Source: Bacillota bacterium (GTDB lineage Bacteria; Bacillota; Dethiobacteria; DTU022). Taken from it: a DNA stretch of 64,000 nt. The position numbers were made by a program, and so were the translations under genes. The stretch spans positions 21,821 to 85,820 of the forward strand of contig JAXHVH010000004.1 in assembly GCA_034189085.1 (NCBI GenBank), written 5' to 3'. Under the pieces are notes generated by a model. That model was given only the letters and a program-made list of their open reading frames with translations. It was not told the origin of the DNA and ran no database searches. Within the stretch, counting starts at the first letter, position 1; every line of letters starts with the position of its first letter. Positions 7,303-62,486 of this stretch are shown in pieces.

Positions 7303-7538
7303 GATTATGTTTCATCTATTTCTGCTGATAATGGAGGATGTTATATCCGGACCTCCAGATTGAACTATTTTTGTGGTGAAGGATTGATTTTATGAAACTG
7401 GAAGGTAACTGTCGCACAACGGCCATGGGCATAATGCGCGATCACTCACGTAAAATCTTACCCAAGGAGGCTATTGATTCCAAGAAGGGGTGAGATTATT
7501 TTTTACTGGTGCCCGCCAATATTTCATTACCGCTTTTG

Positions 7539-9485: not shown

Positions 9486-10613
9486 TCAGGCGCCGGTTTT
9501 TACTTCATGGTAAGCCCATTCCAGCCACTGCATGGCCAGGGCCAGGTTTTCTTTATCCACTGTTGCACCGCACCAGAATCGGAGCCCGGAGGGGGCATCG
9601 CGATAGGAAGCGATATCGAAGGCTACCTCTTCTGTTCCCAGCAAACCGACCAGATCCTTGAGTTGTTGGGCATCCAGGTCCACGATCAGGCAGACGCTGG
9701 TGTTTGATCTGACAGCTGGATCAGCTGCCAGAAAATTAATCCAGTCATGCGCTTCAACGAAATCTTCAATTACCTGCAGATTTTCTTTGCTTCTCCTGAT
9801 CAGGGCCGGCAGGCCGCCAATTTTTTCAGCCCAGTCCAGGGCATCCAGATAGTCTTCAGTGCAAAGCATGGAAGGGGTATTGATCGTTGATCCTTCAAAT
9901 ATCCCCTTGATCAGCTTTCCTTTTTTGGCCAGACGGAAGATTTTTGGCAGCGGCCAGGTTGGGGTGTAGCTTTCGATTCGCTCAACAGCCCGTGGAGACA
10001 GGGCCAGCATACCGTGAGCTGCTTCACCTCCCAGCACTTTCTGCCAGGAAAATGTAACTACATCGAGTTTTTCCCAGGGTATTTCCATGGCAAAAACCGC
10101 TGAAGTGGCATCACAGAGAACAAGACCTTTCCTATCAGCGGGAATAAAATCGCCTCCGGGTATTTTTACTCCACTTGTAGTTCCGTTCCAGGTCAATACT
10201 ACATCGTGATCGAAGTTAATTTTTTTGAGGTCGGGCAGGAGACCGTAATCAGCGGCAATGACATTTACTTCGGGCAGTTTGAGCTGTTTTTCGATGTCAT
10301 CTGCCCAGGTCTTGCCGAAAGATTCAAAGTAGAGGGCATCGACCGGCTTCGGCCCCAGCAGGCTCCACATAGCCATTTCAAATGCTCCGGTGTCTGAAGC
10401 AGGAACGATACCGAGCAGATAGTCAGCAGGCATTCCCAGGATTGTTTTTGTTCTTTCTATTGCTTTCTTCAGGCGTGTTTTACCTTCCTTGCTGCGGTGG
10501 GAACGGCCTAGAAGATCTTTTTTCAGCGAGGATAGATCATAGCCTGGCCTTTTAGCGCAGGGCCCGGAAGAAAAATTTGGGCAGGTTGGTTTTTGTTGTG
10601 GTTTTAAGGGCAT
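9486..10613 (-). CDS. serC: Phosphoserine aminotransferase
   Basis: The [14 protein letters not shown]-terminal motif is classic SerC. A GGAGG sits 9 nt upstream of the second ATG (10613), so that start is preferred over the ORF-track start at 10637. Confidence 0.8.
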
Positions 10614-10930
10614 GGTTAAGAACCTCCAAAATATCATGATAGTTGCTTCATCAGCAATAATAATATATCAGTAAAGGTTGTTAGTAAAGGGATTGGTAAT
10701 CTCTATTTTTCAGGCTGCTTTATTTGATTCTCCAAAAATGATGATCATATGCTCACTTGAGTGTCCTATTCTCTCAGTTTGTTCTTTGAACCAGCCTGTA
10801 CTTGTTGTTCTGTGGTATAATTATTTTATCTAAATGATAAAGTTTCTCAAAATGAAGGAATCTTTGCTTGCGCTGGATTGACAAAGAGGAAAACACAATC
10901 ATCGTGGCTAAAAAAAGGATGGGATATTCA

Positions 10931-11917
10931 ATGCGCCGGATTGTTTTTCTTTTGCTGCTGTTCATAACTGTTCCATTTGCCATTGGCTGTGATTCGTCTG
11001 ACAATACTCTGGATGAAAAACCATCACTAACTGTGATCACAACAATCTATCCCCTGGCCGATATTACCCGGCAACTTGGCGGTGATCTGGTAAATGTGAT
11101 TTGTTTATTGCCCACAGGGGCAAGTCCCCACACTTACGAACCGACAGTTGATCAGGCCAGGTTGATCAGTGAAGCGCAGATGTTTGTTTTTATTGGTGCA
11201 GGACTGGATGATTGGGGGGCCGACCTGGCGAATGCTGCCGGACCCAAACTGCATCTAATTGATCTCTCCACTTCTGTTACTCTCCTCGAAGAAGGTGTTC
11301 ATTTAATGCCTGCACCGGTCGACGATAAAGAAGCTTCAACCATCAAACAAGGGCTTTCTGATCTACAGGATAAAGAGTCTGATCATGATCACAGGCAAGG
11401 GACAATGAATCCTCATTACTGGCTTGATCCTGTAATAGTTAGCGATCAGATCTGCCCCTTTATTTTTCAGGAACTGGTTTACCTGTTGCCTGATGAAGAA
11501 GCATATTTCAAGGAAAGAATGGACAATTACTGTAATGAACTGGCCCTTTTAGATGAAGAAATAAAAACGAATGTCGCTTCTTTCAGCAGCAGGAAGTTTA
11601 TAGCGTTCCACTCGGCCTGGCAGTATTTTGCCTCTCGCTACAATTTAGAGCAGGCAGCGGTTATTGCCGGTTCTCCGGGCCGGGAACCATCTGCAGGGTG
11701 GATAGCTGATTTGATCGATCTGGTTGAGCGGGAGCAGATTAAAGCTGTTTTTGCCGAACCGCAATTTTCACAGGATCTGGCGGACAGGATTGCTGAAGAG
11801 GGAGGCATAGAAGTACATATCCTCGATCCTCTGGGTGGGGAGAATATACCGGGAAAAGAAACTTACCTGTCGTTGATGAGATACAATCTGGCCGTATTCA
11901 GGGAAGTGCTTGACTGA
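10931..11917 (+). CDS. znuA: Zinc ABC transporter substrate-binding lipoprotein (ZnuA/TroA family)
   Basis: Signal peptide with lipobox (FAIGC). A His-rich loop DHDHRQG is present along with the TroA-like fold. AAAGGATGG lies upstream of the ATG at 10931. Confidence 0.75.
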   Translation: MRRIVFLLLLFITVPFAIGCDSSDNTLDEKPSLTVITTIYPLADITRQLGGDLVNVICLLPTGASPHTYEPTVDQARLISEAQMFVFIGAGLDDWGADLANAAGPKLHLIDLSTSVTLLEEGVHLMPAPVDDKEASTIKQGLSDLQDKESDHDHRQGTMNPHYWLDPVIVSDQICPFIFQELVYLLPDEEAYFKERMDNYCNELALLDEEIKTNVASFSSRKFIAFHSAWQYFASRYNLEQAAVIAGSPGREPSAGWIADLIDLVEREQIKAVFAEPQFSQDLADRIAEEGGIEVHILDPLGGENIPGKETYLSLMRYNLAVFREVLD

Positions 11918-11959
11918 ATCAAGATAAATTGCAGAAGTTAACGGTGGAGGCTCAATGAA

Positions 11960-12724
11960 ATGGGTGAAATTGTTAGAGCGGATAATTTATTCGTCAGACT
12001 GAGCGGTAAAAATGTTTTGAAAGAAATTAATTTTTCAGTTAGAGAAGGAGAATTGATGGGAGTGATCGGCCCGAATGGCGCCGGGAAAACAACCCTGCTG
12101 CGCGTTATTCTTGGTCTGATTCCCATTTCCCAGGGTCGTCTTGAGGTCCTGGGCAGGTTATACCCGCAACTAAAGAAAGTTCGACCGATGATTGGGTACA
12201 TGCCCCAGCGTAGTTCGTATGAAAAGGACATCCCCCTTTCGGTTACCGACGTGGTGTCTACCGGATTATTGACACCTGCTACCATGCTGCACCGCTTAAC
12301 AAAAGGAAATCTCAGGGTTAAAGAAGCTCTGCAGGCTGTGGATATGGAAAGATATGCCAAGCGCTATTTCCAGGAACTTTCCGGAGGTGAACAGCAGCGT
12401 ATCCTGCTGGCCCGATCACTGGTTCGGAAACCGAAGCTTCTTCTGCTTGACGAACCGAATGCCGGCCTTGATTTTCCAGCTCAGCAGAAATTTACTGCCC
12501 TTCTTCAGGAGCTGCGGGAGCGGGACAAACTAACGATCATCCTTATTTCCCACGATTTAATTTCTATTGCATCTGTTGCTGATCAACTCATTGGCATAAA
12601 CTGTGTGATGCACACGCACGGCCGGCCAGGTGATTTATTAAACTGCCCGGGACTGGATGAGGTCTATCGTTGCCAGTTTGATTTACTTAGTGGTATCGGA
12701 AGAGGAAGAAGGGATCAGAAATGA
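11960..12724 (+). CDS. znuC: Zinc ABC transporter ATP-binding protein
   Basis: Walker A GPNGAGKTT, signature LSGGEQQR, Walker B LLLLDEP. Confidence 0.8.
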   Translation: MGEIVRADNLFVRLSGKNVLKEINFSVREGELMGVIGPNGAGKTTLLRVILGLIPISQGRLEVLGRLYPQLKKVRPMIGYMPQRSSYEKDIPLSVTDVVSTGLLTPATMLHRLTKGNLRVKEALQAVDMERYAKRYFQELSGGEQQRILLARSLVRKPKLLLLDEPNAGLDFPAQQKFTALLQELRERDKLTIILISHDLISIASVADQLIGINCVMHTHGRPGDLLNCPGLDEVYRCQFDLLSGIGRGRRDQK

Positions 12725-13560
12725 GCGAAATGCTGAATTACGATTTCATGCAGCGGGCCTTGATTGCGGCTTTCCTGGTGGGGACCCTTTGCTCAGTACT
12801 TTCTTTTTTCGTTGTTCTGAAGCGGCTGTCCTTTCTGGGAGCGGGGATTTCTCACACTGCCCTCGGTGGGATTGCCATCGGGTTAGTTACAGGAATCGAT
12901 CCCGTTCTGACGGGAAGCATTTTCTCCGTGCTGACAGCAATGGGGGTTGGTTATGTCAGCAGGGCAGGTAAAATGAGTGTCGACACTGTGATTGGAATAT
13001 TTTATGCCGCCGGGATGGCCCTGGGCATAGCTTTAATCAGTGCTTTTGAAGGGTACTACCCTGAACTATTTTCCCTCCTTTTTGGTAATATCCTTTCGGT
13101 ATCCTTCCGCGATCTCTTGTTGATGGGGATTATCCTGTTATTGACTCTGGCTTTTATAGTTCTCTTTTTTAAAGAACTTTTGGCAATCTGTTTTGACGAA
13201 GAAATGGCTGAAGCAGGAGGGCTGCCGGTTGGCCCACTTTATATGGTTTTACTGGCGGTGATGGGTTTAACAGTCATAGTTTCAATTCAGCTGGTTGGCA
13301 TTGTTCTGGTGGCTGCTTTAATTGTTATCCCCGGTGCTGCAGCGCTCAGGATAAGCAAAAATTACCGCGGTATGCTGGCTCTTTCACTTTTTTTTGGACT
13401 GGTGGGCAGTATTGGTGGTCTTGTGCTATCGTATTTTTACCCTGTTCCGCCGGGGGCAGCGATTGTGCTTATTCTAACTCTGTTATTTATATTAACCCTG
13501 GTGTTGAATTTTTTCCTGGAGAAAAAACTCCAGAGAAGAGGTTCATTTGAGCAGAGATGA
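12721..13560 (+). CDS. znuB: Zinc/manganese ABC transporter permease
   Basis: 279 aa polytopic membrane protein of ABC-3 family type. Translationally coupled to znuC by an ATGA overlap. Confidence 0.8.
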   Translation: MSEMLNYDFMQRALIAAFLVGTLCSVLSFFVVLKRLSFLGAGISHTALGGIAIGLVTGIDPVLTGSIFSVLTAMGVGYVSRAGKMSVDTVIGIFYAAGMALGIALISAFEGYYPELFSLLFGNILSVSFRDLLLMGIILLLTLAFIVLFFKELLAICFDEEMAEAGGLPVGPLYMVLLAVMGLTVIVSIQLVGIVLVAALIVIPGAAALRISKNYRGMLALSLFFGLVGSIGGLVLSYFYPVPPGAAIVLILTLLFILTLVLNFFLEKKLQRRGSFEQR

Positions 13561-13611
13561 AGGCCTGGCCCGTCTGGACAGGCCAGGTAATAATTAAAGG
13601 AAGGATCGAAA

Positions 13612-14082
13612 ATGGCGGACACTGCCTTTGTGGATAAAGCGAAACAGACTCTGCGAAATGATGGCTACAAGCTAACCGGGCCGCGCCTGGCTATCCTTGA
13701 ATTTATGCTTGAAAGTGAAAGACCTTATAGCATGAAGGAAATCTGCTGTGGGCTGCAGAAGAAATTTTCCGGAATTGGCACTGCCACGGTATACCGCAAC
13801 GTGAATCTTTTTCTCAAGCTGGGGATCTTCCGCACTTCCCCGGTCAATAACAACCAATTTTATTATACAATCAACCGGCCCCGAGATGAGCATCATCATA
13901 TGATTTGTTTACAATGCGGTACCCGGGTTGAGTTCAACGGCTGCAATTTTGATCTCATTGCGAAAGAAATTGAAAAGAATACACATTTTGAGATATACGA
14001 TCATACCCTTGAAGTTTACGGGCTTTGCCCCGGTTGTTTGGCTAAACGAAAAGACTATGCCTGTGATAGAGAGGCAGACTAA
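13612..14082 (+). CDS. zur: Fur-family transcriptional regulator, likely zinc uptake regulator Zur
   Basis: 156 aa with a Fur fold and an HHHMICLQCG...CPGC metal site. It is the last gene of the znu operon. Confidence 0.7.
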   Translation: MADTAFVDKAKQTLRNDGYKLTGPRLAILEFMLESERPYSMKEICCGLQKKFSGIGTATVYRNVNLFLKLGIFRTSPVNNNQFYYTINRPRDEHHHMICLQCGTRVEFNGCNFDLIAKEIEKNTHFEIYDHTLEVYGLCPGCLAKRKDYACDREAD

Positions 14083-14098
14083 ACATGATTGCGCAGCA

Positions 14099-14767
14099 TC
14101 AACTCGGCAGGGTGCGGTTGCAGGTAAGTTTGCCGGCGGCAACCAGCTTTCCCATTCTGGCAAGATGTTTCATACTGTGGGCCATCAGTTGTAGCTTGTG
14201 GCGGGCATGAAAATCGATCAATTTTTTATAGTCAGGATTGGCATTCATAAAATCTTTCCAGCGACGGCAGCAGAAGACCTTTTCAATAAAATTTTCCCGC
14301 AGCCGGGCATCATTGAGCCGGCCTTCATCTTCAACCGGCAGGAGAGGAAAAGACTTCACAAATGATTCAGCGAAGAGGCCGCGGCCGCTTTTGAATCGGT
14401 TCATGGAATTTTGATAAACCTTAATCCTGTAGAGTCCACAGCTGGGCGATTTACTCTTGAAGATGAAGCCGCACAGATCATCTTTTTTAAGTTCATCAAT
14501 TCTTGCTTTGCAAAAACGGATCATGACATCAGTGTGATCGATATTGTTTTTTACAGTTATCATCCTGGGCGCAGCCGGGTCGCCTTTCAGGTCAAGCGCT
14601 TCCCGGGGCATCGGTAGTCCGCATTCCATCTCGGGACAGACATAAACGAAATCGAAAAACTGTCCCAGTATGCCGGTTATGTAAGGATTAAGTTTATGCC
14701 CTCCATCATAGCGAACGCTGTGGCCAAGCAAACACTTGCTGACACCAACCCGTATCTTATCGCTCAC
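14099..14767 (-). CDS. DUF523/DUF1722 family protein (YbgA/TudS-like, putative Fe-S desulfurase-type fold)
   Basis: 222 aa. The N-terminus IRVGVSKCLLGHSVRYDGGHK with conserved Cys is characteristic of DUF523. The C-terminal half resembles DUF1722. Confidence 0.55.
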   Translation of the reverse strand: MSDKIRVGVSKCLLGHSVRYDGGHKLNPYITGILGQFFDFVYVCPEMECGLPMPREALDLKGDPAAPRMITVKNNIDHTDVMIRFCKARIDELKKDDLCGFIFKSKSPSCGLYRIKVYQNSMNRFKSGRGLFAESFVKSFPLLPVEDEGRLNDARLRENFIEKVFCCRRWKDFMNANPDYKKLIDFHARHKLQLMAHSMKHLARMGKLVAAGKLTCNRTLPS

Positions 14768-15097
14768 GTTTTATTCTCCCGGTTTTCTTTTCTCGGATTC
14801 AATTCGCCCGTGGCCTTTCTTAATCCTTTAGCAATAAACGATACTGGAAAATTCTTTTTGAGGTATGGGCAAAGGATGTTACTTGAGGTATATTGAAAGT
14901 AAATATTTTTACTGCATGCAAGAACTGTATTTATTTATAATTCGGGTTGCTTCATCCCCGGAGTAAAAAAATAAATTTGTTTACCATTAAAACAGATGCT
15001 GGACAATAAAGCTAAATTGGCAGGACTGTTTATAGGGAACCGGAAGCGCAGCTTAAGTGTCTAAGTACCTGATTGATTGTAAGCATATGCTGGGGGA

Positions 15098-16033
15098 GTG
15101 GAAAATATGATAGGAAGAAAGGGAAGGTTAATTTTTGCAGTTGCAGTGATTCTGTTGTTTATTACGGCTGGAGGATGTGGTAGTGAAGAAACATCGTTGA
15201 TTGAACAGGAGATCCTATTTGAAGAAGGTATTTTTATCGGGCAGATAGACAGCCAATCCGTAGAGATAGAAATTGACGGGCAGCCCAGGGCTTTTGCTAT
15301 CGGAACAGGAGTCATGGTAACCGATATTGCCGATGGGGCGAAAGTTTCTTTTACCTATGTGGAAGAAGAGCGCCCTGTTATCCTTTCAATTGAAGTGAAG
15401 GGGGATGTTCGGGAGAATGAAGGTATTTATACGGGGCAGATTGACAGCCATTCTGTGGAAATAGAGGTAGATGGTCAATACATGGCTTTCGAATTGGCCG
15501 AAAATCTTAATATTGATGAAATTGCTGATGGATCCAGGGTTGCTTTCAGTTACCGTGAAAGCGACACCAGGCCGGTGTTGCTTTCGATAAAGGTTCTTGA
15601 AGAACCGGGGGATATTGAAAATGGTGAACCAGACAGCGAAGAAACGGGTGAACTGGTCGGCGAAGGAATATTAAGTGGCCAGATCGATGCAAATTCGGTT
15701 GAGATAGAAATTGTCAGGCCTTTTATTCTTGGTGAAGGAGTAGAAATGACTGGTATAGAAGATGGTTCGCTGGTGGCTTTCACTTTTTCTGAAAGTGGAC
15801 AGAGAGCGGTTCTCGATTCGATAGAAGCAGTTGAGGAGCCGGTTGAAGGTGAAGTGATGCATGGGACCCTGATCGGGCAGATCGATAGCCAGTCAGTTGA
15901 AATAAGGTATTTTCGAGCTTTTGCACTTGGTCAGGGAGTAAGTGTCGAAGAAATTGCTGATGGTTCGGAAATAGTTTTTACATATGTTGAAGGGCCCCAC
16001 CGGCCAATTCTCAGTTCAATAAGCCGGCGATAA
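15098..16033 (+). CDS. Lipoprotein composed of four tandem ~75-aa internal repeats (GQID-x-SVEIE motif), function unknown
   Basis: Signal peptide plus lipobox ITAGGC. Four repeats begin G(I/Q)IDSQSVEIEIDGQ...AF...G..V..IADGS.V.F.Y.E..RPV.LSI. Confidence 0.6.
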   Translation: MENMIGRKGRLIFAVAVILLFITAGGCGSEETSLIEQEILFEEGIFIGQIDSQSVEIEIDGQPRAFAIGTGVMVTDIADGAKVSFTYVEEERPVILSIEVKGDVRENEGIYTGQIDSHSVEIEVDGQYMAFELAENLNIDEIADGSRVAFSYRESDTRPVLLSIKVLEEPGDIENGEPDSEETGELVGEGILSGQIDANSVEIEIVRPFILGEGVEMTGIEDGSLVAFTFSESGQRAVLDSIEAVEEPVEGEVMHGTLIGQIDSQSVEIRYFRAFALGQGVSVEEIADGSEIVFTYVEGPHRPILSSISRR

Positions 16034-16220
16034 AATTCCGGTGCAAAGACCTGCAGCCATCTGTTCTCTACTGTGGGCAGATGGCTTTTTTATGGATGCC
16101 TTGTAATTGTTGCCTAGCCTCTTGTTTATTACAGGTAGAACATGTTAATATGTATGGGCGATATGAGAAAAAATGGCGGATGAATTATAGATAAGTACTG
16201 TATCCGAGAGGGGTATTTAG

Positions 16221-17561
16221 ATGATTAAGTGCCAGAACTGCGGCATGAGCTATGATGAAGAAGAATATGGTTTCTGTCCGTACTGCGGGAATGTTCCGAG
16301 AGAGGAACGGGATGGTGAAGAAGAAAGTCTTCCTGTCGAGAAGGAATCGACACCAGCAGAAGTTGCTCCTGGTGAGCCTAAAAAAACGGCAAAAGGAAAG
16401 CTCAAATTTGTTCTTCTCGGTTTGGCCCTGGTTATAGCAGCTGCCGTTCTTGTTTTAGTCTTCTTTCCCTTTGGGGAAGCAGGAGTAACTGTCCCCGGAC
16501 AGTATGCTACCATCCAGGAAGCAATCGATGCAGCACAGGACGGAGATGAAATTGTAGTTCAGGTAGGTATTTACCGGGAGAACATTGATTTCAGGGGAAA
16601 AAATATCATTCTGAAAAGTACCGATCCTGGCAATCCGGAAATTGTTTCTGAAACAATTATCGATGGTGGCGGAAGTGGAACAGTTGTTTCATTCAGAAGC
16701 GGCGAAACCGAAGAAGCAGTTCTCAGCGGATTTACTGTAACCGGGGGCAGCGGAATTTTGGTTTCCGGCGAAAGTTCTCCGCGTATCGAGAAGTGTACAA
16801 TCGAAGATAATAAAGCTGAATACGGGGCTGGAATTGCTGTTTTTGATTCTTCGCCCCATATTTTGAATAACGATATTTTAAACAACTCCGGTTTTTTAGG
16901 CGGAGGAATCTTTATTGAAGAATCGTCACCCCTGGTTGAAGGCAATACCATTACCCGTAATAACGCAGAAATGGGTAGCGGAGTTGTAATTATATCAAAT
17001 TCTTCGCCAACCCTGATTAATAATACAATCAGCAACAACAGGGCTACCCGCCTGGGCGGAGGCCTGGTTGTTGCCCTTGGCTCGACGCCGACGATCAACG
17101 ACAACACAATCAGCGGCAATGCTGCAGAAAGAAACGGCGGCGGTATGCTCATTGAGGAATCGGAACCGGTTATTGAAGACAACATGATCAGTCAGAACAG
17201 GGCTGCAAACGGAGGAGGGATCTTTGTGGTCAACGCCATGGATACAGCTCTCTTAATTACCGGTAATGATATCAACGGAAACCTTGCTTACATCGCCGGT
17301 GGAGGCCTTTACATGGAAGGATCATCGCCTACCCTGGATAGTAATACTTTCAGCGACAACATTTCGGAACATCTGGGAGGCGCAGCGGCCGTTTATAACT
17401 CGGCTCCGGTATTCCTGCGAAATATATTTGAAAACAATCAGGCCGGTGATCCTGACGGAGGCGGGGCAGTTTGGGTCTCGGCAGATTCTGTCCTTGAACT
17501 GAATGACCCTGATGATAATACCTACACAATGAACCTGCCGAATGATCTATCTTTTGAATAG
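16221..17561 (+). CDS. Membrane-anchored right-handed parallel beta-helix repeat protein with N-terminal cytoplasmic zinc ribbon
   Basis: CQNCG...CPYCG zinc ribbon, one TM helix, then about 12 repeats of the NNxISxNxAxxGGGI type (PbH1-like). Confidence 0.6.
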   Translation: MIKCQNCGMSYDEEEYGFCPYCGNVPREERDGEEESLPVEKESTPAEVAPGEPKKTAKGKLKFVLLGLALVIAAAVLVLVFFPFGEAGVTVPGQYATIQEAIDAAQDGDEIVVQVGIYRENIDFRGKNIILKSTDPGNPEIVSETIIDGGGSGTVVSFRSGETEEAVLSGFTVTGGSGILVSGESSPRIEKCTIEDNKAEYGAGIAVFDSSPHILNNDILNNSGFLGGGIFIEESSPLVEGNTITRNNAEMGSGVVIISNSSPTLINNTISNNRATRLGGGLVVALGSTPTINDNTISGNAAERNGGGMLIEESEPVIEDNMISQNRAANGGGIFVVNAMDTALLITGNDINGNLAYIAGGGLYMEGSSPTLDSNTFSDNISEHLGGAAAVYNSAPVFLRNIFENNQAGDPDGGGAVWVSADSVLELNDPDDNTYTMNLPNDLSFE

Positions 17562-17612
17562 GGTTGCTTCTTTTTATAGCTACAGCGATCTGGAAAGGAG
17601 CTTGAACGAACA

Positions 17613-19343
17613 ATGAGTGAAGAAAAAAGAAAAATTCCCCGCAAGGGTAAAATAATTGGCCTGATAATAGGGGTAATAGTAATTGCGGCAATTGCAGTGT
17701 CTGCTTATCTGTTTTTATCTGATTCCAATTTAGAAGTACCGGGAGATTACCGCACCATTCAGGATGCCATTGAAGCAGCTGAAGACGGGGACATTATTAT
17801 TGTCGAACCTGGTGTTTATTATGAGCAGATCGACTTTATGGGGAAAGATATTACTGTGCGCAGTATCGACCCGGAAGATCCGGCTGTGGTTGCGGAGACG
17901 GTTATCGATGGCCGCAAGAGGGGATCAGTGGTCACTTTTAAAAGTGGTGAAAGTGCGGAAGCTGTTTTACAGGGTTTTACCATTACCAATGGTGTAGGGA
18001 CGGAGCAGGTAGTTTCCCATCAATATGAGGGGAGCGATTTAACTAATGAAGGAACCTACGGCGGGGGTATTTTTATCAGCGAAAGCAGTTCGCCGACCAT
18101 TACTCAGAACGTGATCAAGGATAATGCTGTCGACATGGATGGCGGTGGAATAGCCATATTCTATGGTTCCAATCCAGCAATTAGCAATAATACCTTTGAA
18201 AACAATTCTGCTTCCAACGGAGGAGGTATTTCTGTCTGGGATGCCAGCCCGATCATTGAAAACAACCTGCTGCGGGAAAATAGAGCTTCCAATATGGGTG
18301 GTGGTGTAACAGTAGATTACCAGTCAGCGCCGCGGGTCAGTGGTAATGAGATCGAAGAAAACAGTGCTACCAGCGGCGGAGGCATTGCCGTATGGTATTC
18401 TGAACCTCTGTTGACGGGGAATACTATTTTAGAAAACCATGCCATCTGGTTCGGAGGCGGGATCGTGGTTATGGACGGAACGCCCACTATTGATGGTAAT
18501 GATATATCAAGGAATACAGCCGAAAACAACGGCGGTGGAATTGCTGTAGCTGAAAGCGCTGCACCGGAGATCCGCAATAACAGTATCGCCAAAAATTATA
18601 CCACTGAAAACGGTGGAGGCATTGCCGTAGTCGAGGACAGCACTCCAGTCATCACTGACAACTTTATTGCTGATAACGTGGTGCTATATGGTGGTGGTGG
18701 AATCTATATCAACGAATCTTCTCCGGTAATCGACGGCAACAACATCACCGGAAACCTTGTTGAACAAGACGGCGGTGGAATTGCTGTTTTAAATGGTTCT
18801 TCTCCAACTGTTCAAAACAATATTATCGACGAAAACGTAGCTGGAAGGGCTGGAGGAGGCCTTGCTATAGGCGGGGAATCGGAAGTTGAACTCCAGCAAA
18901 ATACCATTGCCGGTAATGTGGCAAACAGCGGAGGCGGCCTGTTCATTCAGAATGCGGTTGTCCTTGTGGTTGAGAATGATCTTGCCCGGAATATAGCCCA
19001 GGGTGAAGGCGGTTCTGGTGGCGGTATCATAATCGTTCAGCAATCGACTGTTGAAGTGAGGAAAAACACATTTACCGGCAATACCGCCCAGGAATTCGGG
19101 GGAGGCCTGGTGTCTTTTGATGAATCGGTGATAGTTTTATCCGGCAATGATTTTGTTGATAATGTTGCCGAGATGGGTGGCGCTTATATAGTATTTGGTG
19201 ACTCAGTCCTGGAGATTAGTGAACCGGATGACAATACCTACAGCGGTAATGTGCCGGAAGATACCGAAGGCGGAGCCAAAGAAAGAACGCCGGAAGAGCC
19301 TGAGGGCGAACCAGTAGAAGATCTAGAGGGAAGTGGAGAGTAG
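17613..19343 (+). CDS. Membrane-anchored parallel beta-helix repeat protein (paralog of upstream gene) with acidic C-terminal tail
   Basis: A basic N-terminus precedes one TM helix. The segment PGDYRTIQDAIEAAEDGD...GESAEAVLQGFTITNG parallels the upstream protein, followed by more than 15 beta-helix repeats. The tail is EEPEGEPVEDLEGSGE. Confidence 0.6.
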   Translation: MSEEKRKIPRKGKIIGLIIGVIVIAAIAVSAYLFLSDSNLEVPGDYRTIQDAIEAAEDGDIIIVEPGVYYEQIDFMGKDITVRSIDPEDPAVVAETVIDGRKRGSVVTFKSGESAEAVLQGFTITNGVGTEQVVSHQYEGSDLTNEGTYGGGIFISESSSPTITQNVIKDNAVDMDGGGIAIFYGSNPAISNNTFENNSASNGGGISVWDASPIIENNLLRENRASNMGGGVTVDYQSAPRVSGNEIEENSATSGGGIAVWYSEPLLTGNTILENHAIWFGGGIVVMDGTPTIDGNDISRNTAENNGGGIAVAESAAPEIRNNSIAKNYTTENGGGIAVVEDSTPVITDNFIADNVVLYGGGGIYINESSPVIDGNNITGNLVEQDGGGIAVLNGSSPTVQNNIIDENVAGRAGGGLAIGGESEVELQQNTIAGNVANSGGGLFIQNAVVLVVENDLARNIAQGEGGSGGGIIIVQQSTVEVRKNTFTGNTAQEFGGGLVSFDESVIVLSGNDFVDNVAEMGGAYIVFGDSVLEISEPDDNTYSGNVPEDTEGGAKERTPEEPEGEPVEDLEGSGE

Positions 19344-19375
19344 GCAGGCTGTGGCCCATCATTGAAAAGAAGAGG

Positions 19376-19404
19376 AACAACCCGCCGTGAGGCGGGTTGT
19401 TTTA
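19376..19404 (+). terminator. Intrinsic terminator after beta-helix gene pair
   Basis: Stem AACAACCCGCC/GGCGGGTTGTT (11 bp), loop GTGA, followed by TTTA. Confidence 0.6.
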
Positions 19405-19502
19405 CGGCTCGAGTTTGAGGGCAGGCATTATCGCATGATTCTCTTCAGAACCGGGTAAAAATGCAACCCGCAGATATTAGTTTAAATATTTCCCTGAAGC
19501 TG

Positions 19503-19531
19503 TTGACGGCACAGGGGAAAGATGTTATATT
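19503..19531 (+). promoter_or_regulatory. Promoter of dtxR-feoAB operon (TTGACG-17-TATATT)
   Basis: -35 TTGACG and -10 TATATT with 17-nt spacing. It lies directly upstream of the operator palindrome. Confidence 0.4.
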
Positions 19532-19535
19532 AAAA

Positions 19536-19555
19536 ATGTTAGGATAACCTAACAT
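19536..19555 (+). promoter_or_regulatory. DtxR/IdeR-type operator palindrome ATGTTAGGATAACCTAACAT
   Basis: Perfect 8-bp arms with a 4-nt spacer. It matches the DtxR box core TTAGG-N-CCTAA and overlaps the predicted transcription start of the dtxR operon. Confidence 0.55.
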
Positions 19556-19608
19556 GAATAATGGACTACGGATTGCTGAAAAGAAAGTTGCTTATTTTTT
19601 AAAAGGCG

Positions 19609-20076
19609 GTGTCGGTTTTGACTGAATTGAGGCCTGTTACTTCTTCACTTCAGGATTACCTGGAGGTTATCCTCAACCTCAGCGAAGAAAAAAAAGTTGT
19701 AAGGGTAACAGACATAGCTGATCGGCTGGATATTGCCAAACCCAGTGTTATTCAAGCTCTTGCCCTGCTGAAAGAAAAAGGTTTGATCCGGCAAAACAGA
19801 TATGGGCCTGTGGAATTGACTGAAGAAGGGTACCGCTGTGCCGAAAAGGTATGGCACCGGCATAATGTCCTTTTCGGTTTCTTGACCCAGATTCTTGGAG
19901 TATCACCGCAGGCAGCAGAAGAAGATGCCTGCCTGATAGAACATGATTTGAGCAGTGAAACTTTTGAAAAATTAATATCATTTTTAAAAGAGCAAAAAAT
20001 TGAGGCCCATTATCAAAAAAGAAAACGTTGTGACTTGAAGGCCCAGGGGCCGGGAAATGGAGGTAGAAAAAAATGA
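19609..20076 (+). CDS. DtxR-family metal (iron)-dependent transcriptional repressor
   Basis: N-terminal HTH LQDYLEVI...VRVTDIADRLDIAKPSV, then a dimerisation domain; there is no SH3 domain. GTG start. It is followed by feoA/feoB. Confidence 0.7.
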   Translation: MSVLTELRPVTSSLQDYLEVILNLSEEKKVVRVTDIADRLDIAKPSVIQALALLKEKGLIRQNRYGPVELTEEGYRCAEKVWHRHNVLFGFLTQILGVSPQAAEEDACLIEHDLSSETFEKLISFLKEQKIEAHYQKRKRCDLKAQGPGNGGRKK

Positions 20077-20330
20077 AGTTGTCACTGGTAGATATGAAAC
20101 CCGGGCAGAATGGGGTTATTGAAAAAATTATGGGTGGTCCAGGTTTCGCCGCTAAACTCGGGCAAATCGGGTTGTACAGGGGCAAAAAGATTAAAAAATT
20201 GAGTTCGATTTTCAGACGAGGGCCTGTAACGGTTAGCATTGATAATTTCCAGGTGGCTATTGGTTACGGCAAGGCTATGCGTATCATGGTGGAGGTGGAC
20301 GACGGTGAAGAAAATAGTGCTGGTTGGTAA
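20073..20330 (+). CDS. feoA: Ferrous iron transport protein A
   Basis: 85 aa FeoA/SH3-like (MKPGQNGVIEKI...). Overlaps the dtxR stop by 4 nt. Confidence 0.8.
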   Translation: MKLSLVDMKPGQNGVIEKIMGGPGFAAKLGQIGLYRGKKIKKLSSIFRRGPVTVSIDNFQVAIGYGKAMRIMVEVDDGEENSAGW

Positions 20331-22134
20331 TCCCAATGTGGGGAAAAGCGTTGTATTCTCTCAGCTCACCGGATCGAAGGTGATGATATCCAATTATTCT
20401 GGGACAACCGTCGAATTCACCGGGGGACAACTAACGATCGGTGAAGATTCTTATGCAGTGATGGATGCCCCTGGCACTTACAGCCTCACGCCTTCTTCAA
20501 AAGTAGAAGAAGTGGCAGCAGACATGGTAGATCAGGCTGATGTGGTAATCAATGTTGTTGATGCGACCAATCTTGAGCGTAATCTGCTCCTTACATCAGA
20601 AGTGCTGGAACGTGATGTCCCGGTTATCATTGCTTTAAATATGATCGATGAGGCGGGGCACAAGGGTGTTAAAATTGACGTGGAAAAACTTGAAGAGCTC
20701 CTTGGCGTTCCCGTTATACCTACAGTTGCGGTCAGCGGGGAGGGTTTGAAGAAACTGGTCGATGCTCTTCCGAAGGCAATTAATCGAAAAAAAAAACCTC
20801 TTGAAGTTGCTGACCGCTGGGCTTATGTAGGCAGTGTGGTGGGCGAAGTACAAACCATTATTCACAGGCACCATACCTGGCTTGAATCGCTGCAGGATGA
20901 CAGTCTGAGGCCATTGACCGGTATTCCCATAGTTGCGATTGTCCTCTATTTGGCTTTTCAGCTGGTGATCGGCGTGGGAGAAGTGATCGCCGCTTTTCTG
21001 GAAGAATACTTTTTCGGCGGTTTTTACGGCCTGCTGATGAACCGGCTGAGTGAATGGCTCGGAAGCGGTGGTTTTCTCCACGACATATTAATCGGCAGGC
21101 TTTTTGATGGTGCTATACAATTTGAAGAGTCTCTGGGGGTTCTTACTACCGGGGTATTTGTTGAATTTGGTATTGTTTTACCGTTTTTAACCGTTTTTTA
21201 CCTGGTGCTCGGTTTTTTGGAAGATTCCGGTTATCTTCCCCGCCTGGCGGTGATGGCCGACCGGGTCATGCACCGGGTTGGTCTGCATGGTTATTCCATT
21301 ATTCCCATGGTCCTGGGATTTGGTTGCAATGTCCCGGCTGTTCTGGCAGCACGCAACCTGGAAAGCCGGCGTGAAAGATTTATTGTTTGCACCCTTACGT
21401 CTGTAGCTGTACCCTGCATGGCCCAGCTGGCTATGATCGTAGGGTTGGTCGGAAGATTCGGTGGTGCCTACCTTGCTGTTGTTTTTGCCAGCCTGTTTTT
21501 TATCTGGATTGTGCTTGGCCTGATTATTGACCGTTTTATGCCCGGCTATACACCTTCCATGGTTGTTGAGATACCGCCGTACCGTATCCCAAGCCTGCGG
21601 GCCCAGTTCAAAAAACTGGGCATGAGAGTAAAGGGACTGATTGTTCATGCTACACCCTATATACTCGGGGGGATCCTGCTGGTCAATATTCTATACACAT
21701 CAGGTATCGTTGATTACCTGGGTATAATATTCAAACCGGTAATTCAGGGGGTCCTCGGGTTGCCCGGTGAAGCTGTTTCAACCCTGTTGATCGGTTTTCT
21801 ACGCAAGGATGTTGCTGTAGCCATGCTTGTCCCACTCGGGTTAAATGCCCGCCAGTTTGTGATCGGTGCGGTCGTTCTGGCTGCTTATTTCCCCTGTGCC
21901 GCTACTTTTGCTGTTCTGCTCAGGGAGCTGGGGCTGCGCGATATGTTCAAGTCGGCGATAATAATGGTACTTACCTCTTTTTCCGCTGGATTCATGCTCA
22001 ATATGCTTCTTGATACAGTTGTCCCTGCACCTTACATGGCTGCCGGCCTGGTTGTAGCAGCGATAATCCTGGCCTTCGTTGTTGGCAGCACTTCGGATCG
22101 CCGTGAACTCGAGGATCTGGATAAAGCAGTCTGA
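20305..22134 (+). CDS. feoB: Ferrous iron transport protein B
   Basis: G-domain IVLVGNPNVGKS plus polytopic Gate domains. GGAGGTGGA sits upstream of the GTG at 20305, so this start is preferred over the ORF-track start at 20239. Confidence 0.85.
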   Translation: MKKIVLVGNPNVGKSVVFSQLTGSKVMISNYSGTTVEFTGGQLTIGEDSYAVMDAPGTYSLTPSSKVEEVAADMVDQADVVINVVDATNLERNLLLTSEVLERDVPVIIALNMIDEAGHKGVKIDVEKLEELLGVPVIPTVAVSGEGLKKLVDALPKAINRKKKPLEVADRWAYVGSVVGEVQTIIHRHHTWLESLQDDSLRPLTGIPIVAIVLYLAFQLVIGVGEVIAAFLEEYFFGGFYGLLMNRLSEWLGSGGFLHDILIGRLFDGAIQFEESLGVLTTGVFVEFGIVLPFLTVFYLVLGFLEDSGYLPRLAVMADRVMHRVGLHGYSIIPMVLGFGCNVPAVLAARNLESRRERFIVCTLTSVAVPCMAQLAMIVGLVGRFGGAYLAVVFASLFFIWIVLGLIIDRFMPGYTPSMVVEIPPYRIPSLRAQFKKLGMRVKGLIVHATPYILGGILLVNILYTSGIVDYLGIIFKPVIQGVLGLPGEAVSTLLIGFLRKDVAVAMLVPLGLNARQFVIGAVVLAAYFPCAATFAVLLRELGLRDMFKSAIIMVLTSFSAGFMLNMLLDTVVPAPYMAAGLVVAAIILAFVVGSTSDRRELEDLDKAV

Positions 22135-22149
22135 TTGACGAATAGATGT

Positions 22150-23397
22150 TTAAGAAAACCGGGTGGCGCCGGCAAGGCGCCGGCGAAGCCTCCCTGAGCG
22201 GTGTTCCAGAGCGGGAATACTTAGTTCACTGGATCCCGGGGAGGCAGATGGGTATTTTTTCAAAAGGCCAATCGCTTCTTCGGTGAGTGAGAGAGCAGCA
22301 CTGTAATCTCGCTGCCGGTGTTCGAAATACTTGGCCAGCTCGACATGAAACGTCGGGTTGGCTGTTTTATTATCGATAGCCATCTGCCAGATAGAAACTG
22401 CTTTTTCCCATTGGCAGCGGCGTTTGTAGAAAAGAGCCAGTTCGATGGCTGCTTCTTCGGCGAGAGGCGGGGTCCCGTTTACCGACGCTCTACGCAGGTA
22501 AGAAAGGCCTTCTTTAATTCGGCCGGCATTAATACAGAGTCGCCCCAGGGCCAGCTCTTCCGCAGGATGCTCAACCATCTCTCCAGTGGCCAGCAGGGAA
22601 ACCCGTTTCAGAAGAGTGACCATTGACAGGATATCCAGGACATTATGATGAAAAACTTTACGCATTTTTTCGGTATTGCCGTGGCGGAGGTATTCGAAAT
22701 AAACGGCGGGGATTTCTGATCCGGGAATATCGTCGAAACGTTTGATACCCAGTAGGGCTTCTTCCAGTGCTTTCAGGGAGCGGGAGGGAAGGCGCTTTTT
22801 CCAGAGAGAGCGGGCGCACTGCAGGAGATCAAGGTGCCTGGGTGGCACGGTATGTCTGAGACCGGCCAGGATCTGGCGGGTCTGGATCAGCGGGAGGTCA
22901 AAGATTTTACCGTTAAAAGTGATCATTGCCGGGAAACGTTCAGCTTCCGTGCTGAAGTGACTGAGAATGGCTCTTTCTTCGGCTGGCCTGCGCAGAAAAT
23001 ACTGGCGCAGTTTAAAAGAATTCCCTTCCAGCCAGCCCAGGCCGATCAGGAAGGCCCATGTCCCTGTTCCCCCGGATAATCCGGTGGTTTCGATATCCAG
23101 GAATAGAGATTCCCGAGGGTTAAAATCAGCCAGGCTGTCGTCGTGAGCGGATAAGGCCAGGCCTGTTCCGCAGCAGGAATCAATGCCGGACAGCCTGTTC
23201 CACCCGTGCTGATAAGTGAGCGGATAAAGCAGTTCCCGCATGTAACAACGGCCGAAAGCGGTTTCTTCTTCATGGCCTTCTTCCGGAAAGAGTCGATCTT
23301 TAAAGCCAGACTTCGGTTTTTCAGCATACTGACGCCCTGTTTGGATTTCCCCTGTGCGCCGCAAATCACTCAGTTTTGCCTTTAAATCCTGTTTCAT
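22150..23397 (-). CDS. mrfB: RNase H-like 3'-5' exonuclease with C-terminal TPR region (MrfB/YprB family)
   Basis: 415 aa. LFLDIETTGL is the DEDD/RNase-H-like exonuclease motif I. The C-terminus is TPR-like. The gene is immediately downstream of, and overlapping, the YprA-like helicase gene. Confidence 0.6.
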   Translation of the reverse strand: MKQDLKAKLSDLRRTGEIQTGRQYAEKPKSGFKDRLFPEEGHEEETAFGRCYMRELLYPLTYQHGWNRLSGIDSCCGTGLALSAHDDSLADFNPRESLFLDIETTGLSGGTGTWAFLIGLGWLEGNSFKLRQYFLRRPAEERAILSHFSTEAERFPAMITFNGKIFDLPLIQTRQILAGLRHTVPPRHLDLLQCARSLWKKRLPSRSLKALEEALLGIKRFDDIPGSEIPAVYFEYLRHGNTEKMRKVFHHNVLDILSMVTLLKRVSLLATGEMVEHPAEELALGRLCINAGRIKEGLSYLRRASVNGTPPLAEEAAIELALFYKRRCQWEKAVSIWQMAIDNKTANPTFHVELAKYFEHRQRDYSAALSLTEEAIGLLKKYPSASPGSSELSIPALEHRSGRLRRRLAGATRFS

Positions 23398-25655
23398 TTC
23401 AGGATCACCTCGATCAGCTGCATAACAGTTTGTTTCCCGCCCTCGGAGCCCTGGTTAAGAGGCCCGATGCAGGACGGACAGCCGTCGGAGCACGGGCAGT
23501 CAACTATTACTCTGCGAGCTGCCTCGAAGATGTCGCGATAAATGCGGAAGATCTCCTGGCTGTAACCTACGCCGCCGGGGAAATTGTCGTAAAGATAGAG
23601 GGTCGGCAGTTCCGTGTGGGGTGCTTTTACCTGGCTTACCGCCCGCAGATCGCGAGGATCGCCCATCAGGAAGAGGGAAGCTACCTGTGGGACAAGATTG
23701 GCCAACCCGATCAGTCCGGACTGAATAGCGGCTGGAGACATTCCACCAAGAGCGGCCTGTTTGAAAGAGAGCCAGAAAGCTGTAGTGTGCATCTCTGTTT
23801 CCGGTAGATTCACAGGCCCGGCTCCCAGGTTCTCGTGGGTATTGAAACGTATTTTTTTAAACATCGAGACGAGAGCATTGATACGTACTTCACCCCAGGC
23901 CCTGTTCACTTCTGCCCCTGCACTGGCACAGGCATCAAGGACCTTCAAATCGACAGCCAGATTGGCGTCGGTGAAGTAATTAACTTCTACTTTTTTTACA
24001 TACGCCTTTTTTTCGGCAAAATCGAGTTTTTCCACCTGGTACTGCCGGCCGCCGTGCATGTAAATTGCTTCTTCGTGTACGAGCATAGGTGCACTGAAAC
24101 GATCCACTTCGCCGATTACCTGCGGCTGCGGTCCGGTGATATCGATTATAACCACATTTTCCCTGGTGGCGCTGCGCAGGCTGATTTCTTCGGCGGGGTA
24201 AGTGTCTTCCATCCAGTGGTAGCGGCCGTCACTGTGGTAAAGAACGTCTTCCTCTTCCAGGAACTGCAGCACTCCTTCAATTTCAGCCCTCCCGAAATGT
24301 TCGCCCTCCCTGAAGGGCAGTTCAAAGGCAGCGCACCGGACGTGGTTGGTAAGGATAATCAGGTTGTCGGGATCAGCCAGCGCTCTTTCCGGGCTTCGAT
24401 CAAAGAAATAATCGGGATTGGAGACGATGTACTGGTTTAGCGGTTCACTGTTAGCTACCAGCATAGCCAGAGAAATGCCGCTGCGCCGTCCGGAACGGCC
24501 TGCCTGCTGCCAGGTGCTGGCGATACTGCCTGGATAACCGGTCATAATGCAGGCATCGAGGGCGCCGATGTCAATGCCCAGTTCAAGGGCATTGGTGCTA
24601 ACAACTCCTTTAATCCTGCCACGGCGCAAACCTTCTTCAATGGCCCTTCTTTCTCGCGGCAGGTAACCACCGCGGTAACCGCGAATTGTGCTGTCCTCAC
24701 CGGGTCTGATCTTGCGGTTTTGACGCAGGTATGTGAGCAGGACTTCTACTCCCAGACGGCTGCGGGTAAAAACAATTGTTTGGACACCTGCACTGATCAA
24801 ATCGGCTGCCAGCTGGCGGACTTCCAGCAAGGCGCTACGTCTCAATCCCAGCTCTGGATTGATCAAGGGAGGGTTATAAAAAATGAAATGTTTTTCTGCC
24901 TGTGGGGCGCCGTTTTCGGCAATTACAGCAGGTTGTTCCTCGATTAGCAGTTCTGCCAGTTCGCCGGGATTGGCGATTGTCGCCGAGCAAAGGATGAAAA
25001 CGGGGCTGGAACCGTAAAAAGCGCAGATTCTTTTGAGGCGGCGTATCACGTTGGCTACATGGCTGCCGAAGACTCCCCTGTACTGGTGCATTTCATCAAT
25101 GACTATATACTTGAGGTTCTGAAAGAGCTGAATCCATTTGGTGTGATGGGGCAGGATGGCCGAATGGAGCATATCCGGATTGGTGACAACAATGTGCCCG
25201 CTGCGGCGGATGCTCCGCCGCAATCCGGGTTCAGTGTCGCCGTCATAAGTATGGCAGTTCAGATCTGGCTCCAATTTTCCGGTAAGCTCCCTCAGTTCGG
25301 CAACCTGGTCCTGGGAGAGCGCTTTGGTTGGAAAAAGATAAAGAGCTCTGCTGGAAGGATCTTTAGTCAGGGCACTGACTACGGGTAGGTTATAGCAGAG
25401 TGTTTTACCCGAGGCTGTGGGGGTAACTACTACTGTATGTTTGCCTCTTTCAATTGTTTCAATAGCTGCTGCCTGGTGGCTGTAAAGCTTTTCGATTCCC
25501 CGCTTTCTTAGCGCTTCGGCAAGCTGTGGTTCCAGCCGGGGCGGAAAATCGCGGTAAGTCCCTTCAGATGCACGAACTGTTTCCCAGCGGGTGACATTGC
25601 TTAAAAATGAAGGATCTTCTCTCCATTTTTGGAGTATTTCATTTATATCAGTCAT
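23394..25655 (-). CDS. mrfA: DEAD/DEAH-box helicase with C-terminal DUF1998/MZB 4-Cys domain (MrfA/YprA family)
   Basis: 753 aa. Motif I TPTASGKT, DEMH box, and C-terminal CPCSDGCPSC are all present. Confidence 0.7.
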   Translation of the reverse strand: MTDINEILQKWREDPSFLSNVTRWETVRASEGTYRDFPPRLEPQLAEALRKRGIEKLYSHQAAAIETIERGKHTVVVTPTASGKTLCYNLPVVSALTKDPSSRALYLFPTKALSQDQVAELRELTGKLEPDLNCHTYDGDTEPGLRRSIRRSGHIVVTNPDMLHSAILPHHTKWIQLFQNLKYIVIDEMHQYRGVFGSHVANVIRRLKRICAFYGSSPVFILCSATIANPGELAELLIEEQPAVIAENGAPQAEKHFIFYNPPLINPELGLRRSALLEVRQLAADLISAGVQTIVFTRSRLGVEVLLTYLRQNRKIRPGEDSTIRGYRGGYLPRERRAIEEGLRRGRIKGVVSTNALELGIDIGALDACIMTGYPGSIASTWQQAGRSGRRSGISLAMLVANSEPLNQYIVSNPDYFFDRSPERALADPDNLIILTNHVRCAAFELPFREGEHFGRAEIEGVLQFLEEEDVLYHSDGRYHWMEDTYPAEEISLRSATRENVVIIDITGPQPQVIGEVDRFSAPMLVHEEAIYMHGGRQYQVEKLDFAEKKAYVKKVEVNYFTDANLAVDLKVLDACASAGAEVNRAWGEVRINALVSMFKKIRFNTHENLGAGPVNLPETEMHTTAFWLSFKQAALGGMSPAAIQSGLIGLANLVPQVASLFLMGDPRDLRAVSQVKAPHTELPTLYLYDNFPGGVGYSQEIFRIYRDIFEAARRVIVDCPCSDGCPSCIGPLNQGSEGGKQTVMQLIEVILK

Positions 25656-62372: not shown

Positions 62373-62486
62373 TCTGCGGTGTTTCTTTCATTATCCTCTT
62401 AAACGGACATGGTCGCAAGCATAAAATGACCTGTTGAAAGTCATAATTTTGTTTTGTGTTATAATTATTATGGAGGAGAGTTTTTC

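Follow-up and report, generated by a model that had tools for sequence, protein, structure and literature searches.

The DNA examined here is a stretch of 64,000 nucleotides (the window) from contig JAXHVH010000004.1 of the Bacillota bacterium assembly GCA_034189085.1 (positions 21,821 to 85,820 of the forward strand). Its program-made list of open reading frames (ORFs) contains three co-directional ORFs at 15098-16033, 16221-17561 and 17613-19343, which encode a lipoprotein with four repeats (gene 1) and two paralogous membrane proteins with beta-helices (genes 2 and 3). A first-pass annotation had described these genes as a three-gene surface module closed by a strong terminator. The three genes are real, but they constitute two separate expression units built from known folds and not one operon, since a hairpin lies between gene 1 and gene 2 and gene 2 has a conserved promoter of its own (Table 1). 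The terminator proposed after gene 3 was recovered as a hairpin, but it does not close a single module, as a second hairpin follows gene 1 in the window and separate promoters precede gene 1 and genes 2-3. The hairpin after gene 1 was detected with G-U pairs allowed, and hairpins like it were also found just 3' of the gene 1 stop codon in the ortholog loci L002, L013 and L017. The gap between gene 1 and gene 2 measures at least 188 nt in every locus and about 1.1 kb in L010, L011 and L019. In L019, an extra gene for a 237-aa lipoprotein (7047-7760) lies between gene 1 and gene 2, and the gaps in L010 and L011 are of similar size. Upstream of gene 2, the block CTTGTT-N17/18-(ACA)TG(T/A)TAA(T/G)AT can be made out, apart from the window, at 10 of 16 ortholog loci; in L004 and L009 only its -10 part is seen, the -35 part lying outside the 130-nt slice, and no alignment was obtained for L002, L010, L012, L017, L019 and L025. 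Conservation across ortholog loci extends to GAGAGGGGTAT, the ribosome-binding site (RBS) of gene 2. The 51-nt gap between genes 2 and 3 carries the RBS of gene 3, and scans of this gap for terminator-like hairpins found none. A search upstream of genes 1 and 2 gave no palindromic operator, and an Rfam scan of positions 10000-24000 matched no RNA family.

Table 1. Features of the locus. Positions are those of the window.
Feature	Residues	Nucleotides	Strand	Remarks
Gene 1 promoter, ECF-sigma-type		-35 GGAACC 15036-15041; -10 GTCTA 15059-15063	+	17-nt spacer; from motif and conservation
Gene 1, 308-aa acidic lipoprotein		15107-16033	+
Gene 1, four OB_LytA / CusF-like OB-fold repeats	36-98, 101-166, 182-242, 248-308	15212-15400, 15407-15604, 15650-15832, 15848-16030	+
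Intrinsic-terminator-like hairpin after gene 1		16055-16092	+	hairpin 16055-16086; 12 pairs, loop 8; then TTTTTAT
Promoter of gene 2-gene 3 operon, sigma-A-like		-35 TTGTTT 16122-16127; extended -10 TGtTAATAT 16143-16151	+
Gene 2, 446-aa type-II membrane protein		16221-17561	+
Gene 2, C4 zinc ribbon	1-25	16221-16295	+
Gene 2, disordered acidic/basic linker	about 28-61
Gene 2, membrane helix	61-81	16401-16463	+	hydrophobicity and AlphaFold model
Gene 2, right-handed parallel beta-helix	89-446	16485-17558	+	10 regular coils plus N- and C-terminal caps
Gene 3, 576-aa paralog of gene 2		17613-19343	+	RBS AAAGGAG in the 51-nt gap before it
Gene 3, signal-anchor helix	about 14-35	17652-17717	+
Gene 3, beta-helix	41-550	17733-19262	+	15 regular coils
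Gene 3, acidic tail	551-576	19263-19340	+
Terminator of gene 2-gene 3 operon		19376-19401	+	GC-rich hairpin AACAACCCGCC-GTGA-GGCGGGTTGTT, then T-rich tail

The true start of gene 1 is the ATG at 15107 and not the GTG at 15098, which overlaps the RBS GGGGGAG (15092-15098). The resulting product is 100% identical to the protein SVV67_02235 ('Bacillota bacterium') from an NCBI metagenome-assembled genome (MAG). Its basic and hydrophobic signal peptide ends in ...LFITAGGC24 (Cys24 codon at 15176-15178), and G23 and C24 of this lipobox, read from the sequence itself, are conserved in at least 90% of the orthologs. The earlier description as a lipoprotein of four repeats was thereby confirmed: the repeats comprise about 60 aa each, share 44-52% mutual identity and follow the pattern G-x3-GQID-x2-SVEI ... 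F-x-L ... DGS-x-V-x-F-x-Y ... RP-x-L-x-SI. The calculated pI of the protein is 4.1. The database protein P0121, 100% identical to gene 1, has Pfam OB_LytA (PF27162) on record, as have all orthologs. The NCBIfam model lipo_LytA matches gene 1 with an E-value of 7e-18 and 64.8 bits, which is below the equivalog cut-off of 110. Judged by this score and by its four domains, gene 1 is a member of the OB_LytA family and not an ortholog of LytA. In an exhaustive HMMER search, the OB_LytA domain was found in only 436 cluster representatives among 1.84 billion proteins; their repeat number ranges from one to five, and only the top matches have four.

LytA and YqiH of Bacillus subtilis (OB_LytA PF27162; NF058647, NF058642) are, like the gene 1 product, acidic lipoproteins with the same OB-type domain, and their genes likewise lie upstream of genes for exported envelope proteins. 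They contain one domain in about 100 aa, whereas gene 1 has four in 308 aa, and gene 1 lacks an amidase or wall-binding-repeat partner but has its own ECF-type promoter and, in the window, its own terminator. The B. subtilis genes head wall-hydrolase operons, and the roles of the two lipoproteins are unresolved (PMC7530257). Pfam CusF_Ec also matches gene 1 above the gathering score, and OB-fold models agree with this assignment. The gene 1 profile aligns with CusF residues 17-27 and 40-78, leaving only 2 profile positions in the gene 1 repeats for the 12 ligand-bearing residues in between (chain residues 28-39). This segment contains the His/Trp/Met ligands of CusF. No conserved Met, His or Cys was found in the gene 1 repeats (23 orthologs; 30 repeats), and gene 1 differs from CusF, SilF and the C-terminal domain of SilB, which are periplasmic OB-fold chaperones for Cu(I)/Ag(I), by the absence of the His/Met/Met/Trp loop. 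Because both the metal loop and the ligands are missing, the JGI label 'Cu/Ag efflux protein CusF' on some orthologs is correct at the level of the fold only, and neither this label nor 'NosD' for the beta-helix proteins is evidence of metal handling here.

The element GGAACC-N17-GTC(T/C) is the only conserved one upstream of gene 1, and the sequence flanking it is not conserved. In 16 of 18 loci, a motif of the form GGAA[CT][CT]-N16-18-GTC precedes the gene 1 ORF by 37-64 nt; the 250 kb of these loci contain only 7 other plus-strand matches. Promoters of sigma-E in Escherichia coli have a -35 element GGAAC with an AAC core and a -10 element GTC (PMC1540707, PMC6338062), and those of sigma-X, -W, -M and -V in B. 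subtilis read xGAAAC ... CGT(C/A) (PMC5758882). These envelope-stress promoters depend on sigma factors of the extracytoplasmic function (ECF) type, and the gene 1 promoter has the same layout, with the AAC core in its -35 element, a spacer of 16-17 nt, a -10 element (C)GTC and a conserved position; its locus differs in having no sigma gene nearby. The motif carries the signature of group IV (ECF) sigma promoters, from which a dependence of gene 1 on such a factor is predicted. Among five distant OB_LytA genes, three have TGAAAC- or GGAACC-N16-CGTC in the expected position upstream, which suggests that the OB_LytA family may often be part of an ECF regulon. In these cases, the motif lies at 4944-4973 of L088, 4940-4969 of L089 and 4940-4967 of L090, each time before a one- or two-domain OB_LytA gene of other Bacillota. 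A recurrent ECF-type promoter before OB_LytA genes would offer a testable link of the poorly understood LytA/YqiH family to envelope stress.

Genes 2 and 3 had been described as co-directional paralogs, each with a beta-helix and a single N-terminal transmembrane helix, and this description stands: the two proteins share 40% identity over 415 aa (E 2e-75), and each has one hydrophobic helix near the N-terminus. In the AlphaFold model of gene 2 (pLDDT 87.7), residues 1-25 form a small beta-hairpin ribbon and residues 89-446 a continuous beta-helix. The start of gene 2 reads CxxC-x11-CxxC, and Cys4, Cys7, Cys19 and Cys22 are invariant in 20 orthologs, in agreement with the C4 zinc ribbon noticed at first reading; the matches to Zn_Ribbon_1 and DUF7575 are marginal, and the model places two beta-hairpins in the 25 residues. 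Turns with a GxG motif follow one another at intervals of 25-29 residues (10 in gene 2, 15 in gene 3), and the beta-helix of gene 3 contains a conserved 24-aa insertion at aa 127-150. Most invariant positions of both proteins belong to the Asn ladder, to Gly turns or to the two caps, which read TIQxAIDAA...GD...G.Y.E (N-terminal) and DPDDN.Y..N.P.D (C-terminal). The poly-acidic tail reported for gene 3 is present in 14 of 14 orthologs, where it is retained as a feature and not as a sequence, the sequences being different and the acidity similar. The profiles that match genes 2 and 3 describe repeat-level families (Beta_helix at 1e-40, NosD, para_beta_helix, Chlam_PMP), and a search of the PDB sequences with the gene 2 profile returned only an irrelevant Tetrahymena chain. 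These beta-helices belong to the generic Beta_helix/NosD/Pmp-repeat superfamily and fail the tests for NosD, anti-sigma and lyase/epimerase proteins considered below. Paralogs with a ribbon, a membrane helix and a beta-helix occur elsewhere in the same genomes, clustered with zinc-ribbon membrane proteins and ankyrin-repeat proteins and without OB_LytA genes; because of these paralogs of the same architecture, the zinc ribbon is best seen as a recurrent N-terminal module of the lineage and not as a mark of anti-sigma factors. More generally, CxxC...CxxC ribbons start or end many unrelated membrane or secreted proteins, often in clusters (L021, 9694-13681); in L086 (1-7377) zinc-ribbon proteins are clustered with ankyrin-repeat proteins, and close to the end of the window a further ORF (196 aa, 62454-63044) starts with a zinc ribbon.

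About 80 clusters of full-length gene 2 orthologs were found at 54-89% identity, below which identity drops sharply to 44% or less and the matches are generic beta-helix proteins. Among species-representative genomes, the carriers of gene 2 orthologs are exclusively MAGs with the label 'Syntrophomonadaceae bacterium' or 'Bacillota bacterium', and one gene 1 ortholog is labelled Dethiobacteria. The isolate names CSSed, T1Sed and ML8_F2 presumably point to soda-lake sediments. Wherever a locus is long enough to cover all three genes, their order is gene 1, gene 2, gene 3; this holds for about 17 species of a single clade. Conservation of the gene neighbourhood, which the first reading had named as a check, was thus found in related genomes. 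Identities across loci are 42-80% for gene 1, 54-88% for gene 2 and 49-88% for gene 3, similar to neighbouring housekeeping genes, and with 54-68% gene 2 is about as conserved as its syntenic neighbours. A divergent DUF523/DUF1722 gene always precedes the three genes, and the wider neighbourhood is syntenic as well (znuB, fur, dtxR, feoB and an RNase-H-like gene). Since they keep the same syntenic position and are conserved like their neighbours, the three genes are old residents of the lineage and not a recent import, and the suggested horizontal acquisition was rejected despite the low third-position GC of gene 1. The lower local GC that had been noticed is unremarkable in the overall composition (0.462 for the three genes against 0.479 +/- 0.030 in 1-kb windows). 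At third codon positions, GC falls below the expectation from amino-acid composition by 2.7 standard deviations in gene 1, 1.6 in gene 2 and 1.35 in gene 3, clearly only in gene 1. The third-position GC of gene 1, 0.37, is the lowest of the genes examined. The unusually high GC skew across gene 1 (0.35 at 15001-16000) results from its Gly-, Glu- and Asp-rich product and the correspondingly G-rich coding strand. All three proteins have a pI of about 4.1. As the exported ZnuA (4.55) is also acidic and the cytoplasmic neighbours are not, the acidity, including that of the tail, looks like the usual signature of exported proteins.

The interpretation that we favour, with a confidence just short of even, is that an envelope-stress-induced OB-fold lipoprotein is encoded beside a separately expressed operon for two probably non-catalytic beta-helix wall proteins. 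The locus would thus consist of two independent cell-envelope transcription units that are specific to one clade of soda-lake Bacillota (Syntrophomonadaceae/Dethiobacteria MAGs). The first unit, a single gene, would supply an acidic lipoprotein tethered to the outer face of the membrane, with four CusF-like OB domains that have lost the Cu/Ag-binding loop of their CusF-like ancestors. Because of its ECF-sigma-type promoter, this lipoprotein is most likely made under envelope stress, and it most likely binds or escorts wall material or exported proteins while tethered to the membrane, rather than acting as a metal chaperone. The second unit, a two-gene operon with a housekeeping-type promoter, would probably be expressed constitutively and yield two single-pass proteins with N-in/C-out topology. 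Their ectodomains are predicted to be very regular, loop-poor beta-helices with estimated lengths of 6 and 9 nm and Pmp-like GGxI/NxxN coils, and their most likely role is a non-catalytic one, in which they would span the wall and bind or scaffold a glycan or polymer, perhaps as a hetero-pair. Gene 2 could offer its 25-residue cytoplasmic zinc ribbon as a handle to a cytoplasmic partner. Several points weigh against this interpretation. The assignment to ECF sigma factors has the motif as its sole basis, two of the five distant OB_LytA genes (L091 and L092) lack the motif, and no ECF sigma gene is evident in the window; the check for sigma genes covered ten annotated flanking genes and the annotated ortholog loci, and the rest of the window by its ORF list. 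The first coils of gene 2 conserve a charged surface (R159, E162, R175, E195, D196, E200, D209 and E233), which could form an active or ion-binding site. Finally, the conservation of gene order may simply reflect clade-wide synteny.

An alternative reading treats all three proteins as one system, in which the LytA-like lipoprotein would escort, hold or regulate the two beta-helix proteins. In the analogous lytABC locus of B. subtilis, the gene of the lipoprotein LytA precedes those of two wall-bound proteins, LytB and LytC, which share a paralogous wall-binding domain. The invariable order of the three genes, the lipo_LytA match of gene 1 and the position of lytA and yqiH at the head of wall-hydrolase operons (PMC7530257) speak for such a system. 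On the other hand, the promoters of the two units are of different types and a terminator separates them in the window, genes 1 and 2 are about 1.1 kb apart in L010, L011 and L019, with another lipoprotein gene between them in L019, none of the five distant OB_LytA genes inspected has a beta-helix neighbour, and the paralogous ribbon beta-helix genes occur without OB_LytA. Because the whole region is syntenic, conserved adjacency within one clade is weak evidence of a functional link, and we regard a three-protein system as unlikely. A comparably low probability is assigned to the idea that the beta-helix proteins are membrane-anchored epimerases, lyases or hydrolases acting on an acidic wall polymer or exopolysaccharide, in the manner of AlgG/AlgE4, PL6 or GH87-like enzymes. 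AlgE4, AlgG and PL6 have the right-handed parallel beta-helix fold in common with genes 2 and 3, but identity to all these enzymes is only 15-22%, and genes 2 and 3 have no conserved His or DPHD-type motif and no substrate cleft, their regular coils having almost no loop insertions that could form one. As catalytic definitions we assume DPHD/His for the AlgG/AlgE4 epimerases and Lys/Arg plus a Ca site for PL6; sequence conservation in genes 2 and 3 does not match these definitions, and the DPHD/His motif is excluded by the lack of an invariant His in either ortholog family. The charged cluster of gene 2 is not common to gene 3, and the only match to an enzyme family, a borderline one to Chondroitinas_B (positions 193-280 of 426), is confined to repeat turns. 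No glycosyltransferase or export genes were found among the flanking genes or in the annotated ortholog loci. As far as tested, the statement that the locus contains no enzymatic motifs therefore holds, and the assignment to a known lyase or hydrolase family that would have spoken against a surface module did not emerge.

The genes flanking genes 1-3 (znuACB, fur, DUF523 and dtxR-feoAB) evoke a metal-trafficking set of the NosL/NosD or CusF-like type, in which the lipoprotein would pass metal to NosD-like beta-helices between znuACB-zur and dtxR-feoAB. This is very improbable, since gene 1 lacks the CusF loop and conserves no Met, His or Cys, and since the ectodomains of genes 2 and 3 likewise have no invariant His, Met or Cys among their orthologs. 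The NosD model TIGR04247 scores gene 2 with 55.7 and gene 3 with 81.4 bits against a cut-off of 300. Whereas NosD is the periplasmic beta-helix of the NosDFY ABC complex for copper/sulfur maturation, genes 2 and 3 encode proteins that are anchored by their own N-terminal helix and have no conserved metal ligands; partners resembling the NosF ATPase and the NosY permease were not found, and no ortholog locus contains an adjacent ABC-2 pair. The gene 1 promoter is of the ECF type and not of a metalloregulator type. As a DtxR-type palindrome occurs in a single copy in the window, only before dtxR-feoAB, as the znu and feo genes are not always adjacent (they are not in L001 and L002), and as no ligands are conserved, the metal context appears to be incidental. 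Scarcely more probable is the role of gene 2 as a transmembrane sensor or anti-sigma-like receptor, whose ribbon would signal inward and, for example, control the ECF sigma factor of gene 1. The combination of zinc ribbon, membrane helix and large ectodomain, which had led to this analogy in the first-pass annotation, and the ECF-type promoter immediately upstream, at gene 1, are compatible with it. However, no sigma gene was found within about 5 kb or in the annotated ortholog loci, and the cytoplasmic part consists only of the 25-residue ribbon and a disordered linker. The model contains no helical anti-sigma domain, zf-HC2 is not among the Pfam matches of gene 2 at E <= 0.1, and the ribbon module heads many unrelated membrane proteins in these genomes.

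In beta-helix adhesins such as chlamydial Pmp proteins, PfbA of Streptococcus pneumoniae and the Vag8 passenger of Bordetella, the fold is presented differently: genes 2 and 3 use an N-terminal membrane helix, have neither an autotransporter barrel nor a sortase motif, include a zinc ribbon in gene 2 and originate from a free-living anaerobic soda-lake bacterium. The Chlam_PMP repeat matches gene 2 with 32.6 bits at a cut-off of 20.6, and gene 3 stays below it with 16.4 bits; a C-terminal autotransporter barrel was not found in either protein, and the proteins end in a helix cap or in the acidic tail. Of the proposal of a new cell-surface, adhesin or sensing system, it can be retained that all three are cell-envelope proteins, but not their novelty, as they belong to known families (OB_LytA PF27162 and the Beta_helix/NosD-like superfamily). 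They are lineage-specific variants, namely a four-domain OB_LytA lipoprotein and a zinc-ribbon-anchored beta-helix pair, and not a new kind of system. What seemed an attractive 'surface module' is made of known building blocks that are separately expressed and confined to one uncultured clade. A more far-reaching idea, which we consider rather improbable, is that OB_LytA lipoproteins are a widespread and unrecognised output of ECF-controlled envelope-stress responses in Bacillota, and that the four-domain version of this clade cooperates with the zinc-ribbon-anchored beta-helix pair in a stress-tuned, highly acidic wall-organising layer. If this were true, such a layer would help to hold the envelope together at high pH and high salt. 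A reading of the locus as a prophage tailspike or defence element was rejected, as nothing relevant was found in phage and defence libraries.

Upstream of the three genes, the window contains a znuA-znuC-znuB operon followed by a Fur-family gene, probably Zur (10868-14082), a block that many relatives, though not all, have in the same position. The adjacent DUF523/DUF1722 gene (14082-14767, minus strand; 2-thiouracil desulfurase-like) encodes 316 aa in all relatives. In the window, the alignment covers residues 1-213 at 14767-14129 and, in a different frame, residues 291-316 at 14159-14082, so that about 77 codons are missing and the frame is shifted; this copy is probably a pseudogene or the result of an assembly error. 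Downstream, a near-perfect palindrome, TGTTAGGATAACCTAACA (19537-19554), lies about 55 nt upstream of a DtxR-family gene (19609-20076) that has feoA and feoB downstream of it. The palindrome, which overlaps a sigma-70-like promoter (TTGACG-17-TATATT, 19503-19531), is probably an auto-regulated operator of the DtxR/MntR type. Relatives have lgt (prolipoprotein diacylglyceryl transferase) and msrB (SelR) in the interval from gene 3 to dtxR (L002 13251-14730, L004 15029-16556, L001 18204-19641); in the window, dtxR-feoAB directly follows gene 3, and the lgt-msrB block is either absent or relocated. The surroundings of gene 1 vary among loci: between DUF523 and gene 1, a gene for a DUF2207 membrane protein is annotated in L004, L005 and L008 (6827-8758 in L004/L008), and the same insert is suggested for L009, L013, L015, L016, L017 and L020 by their gap of about 2 kb at this site.

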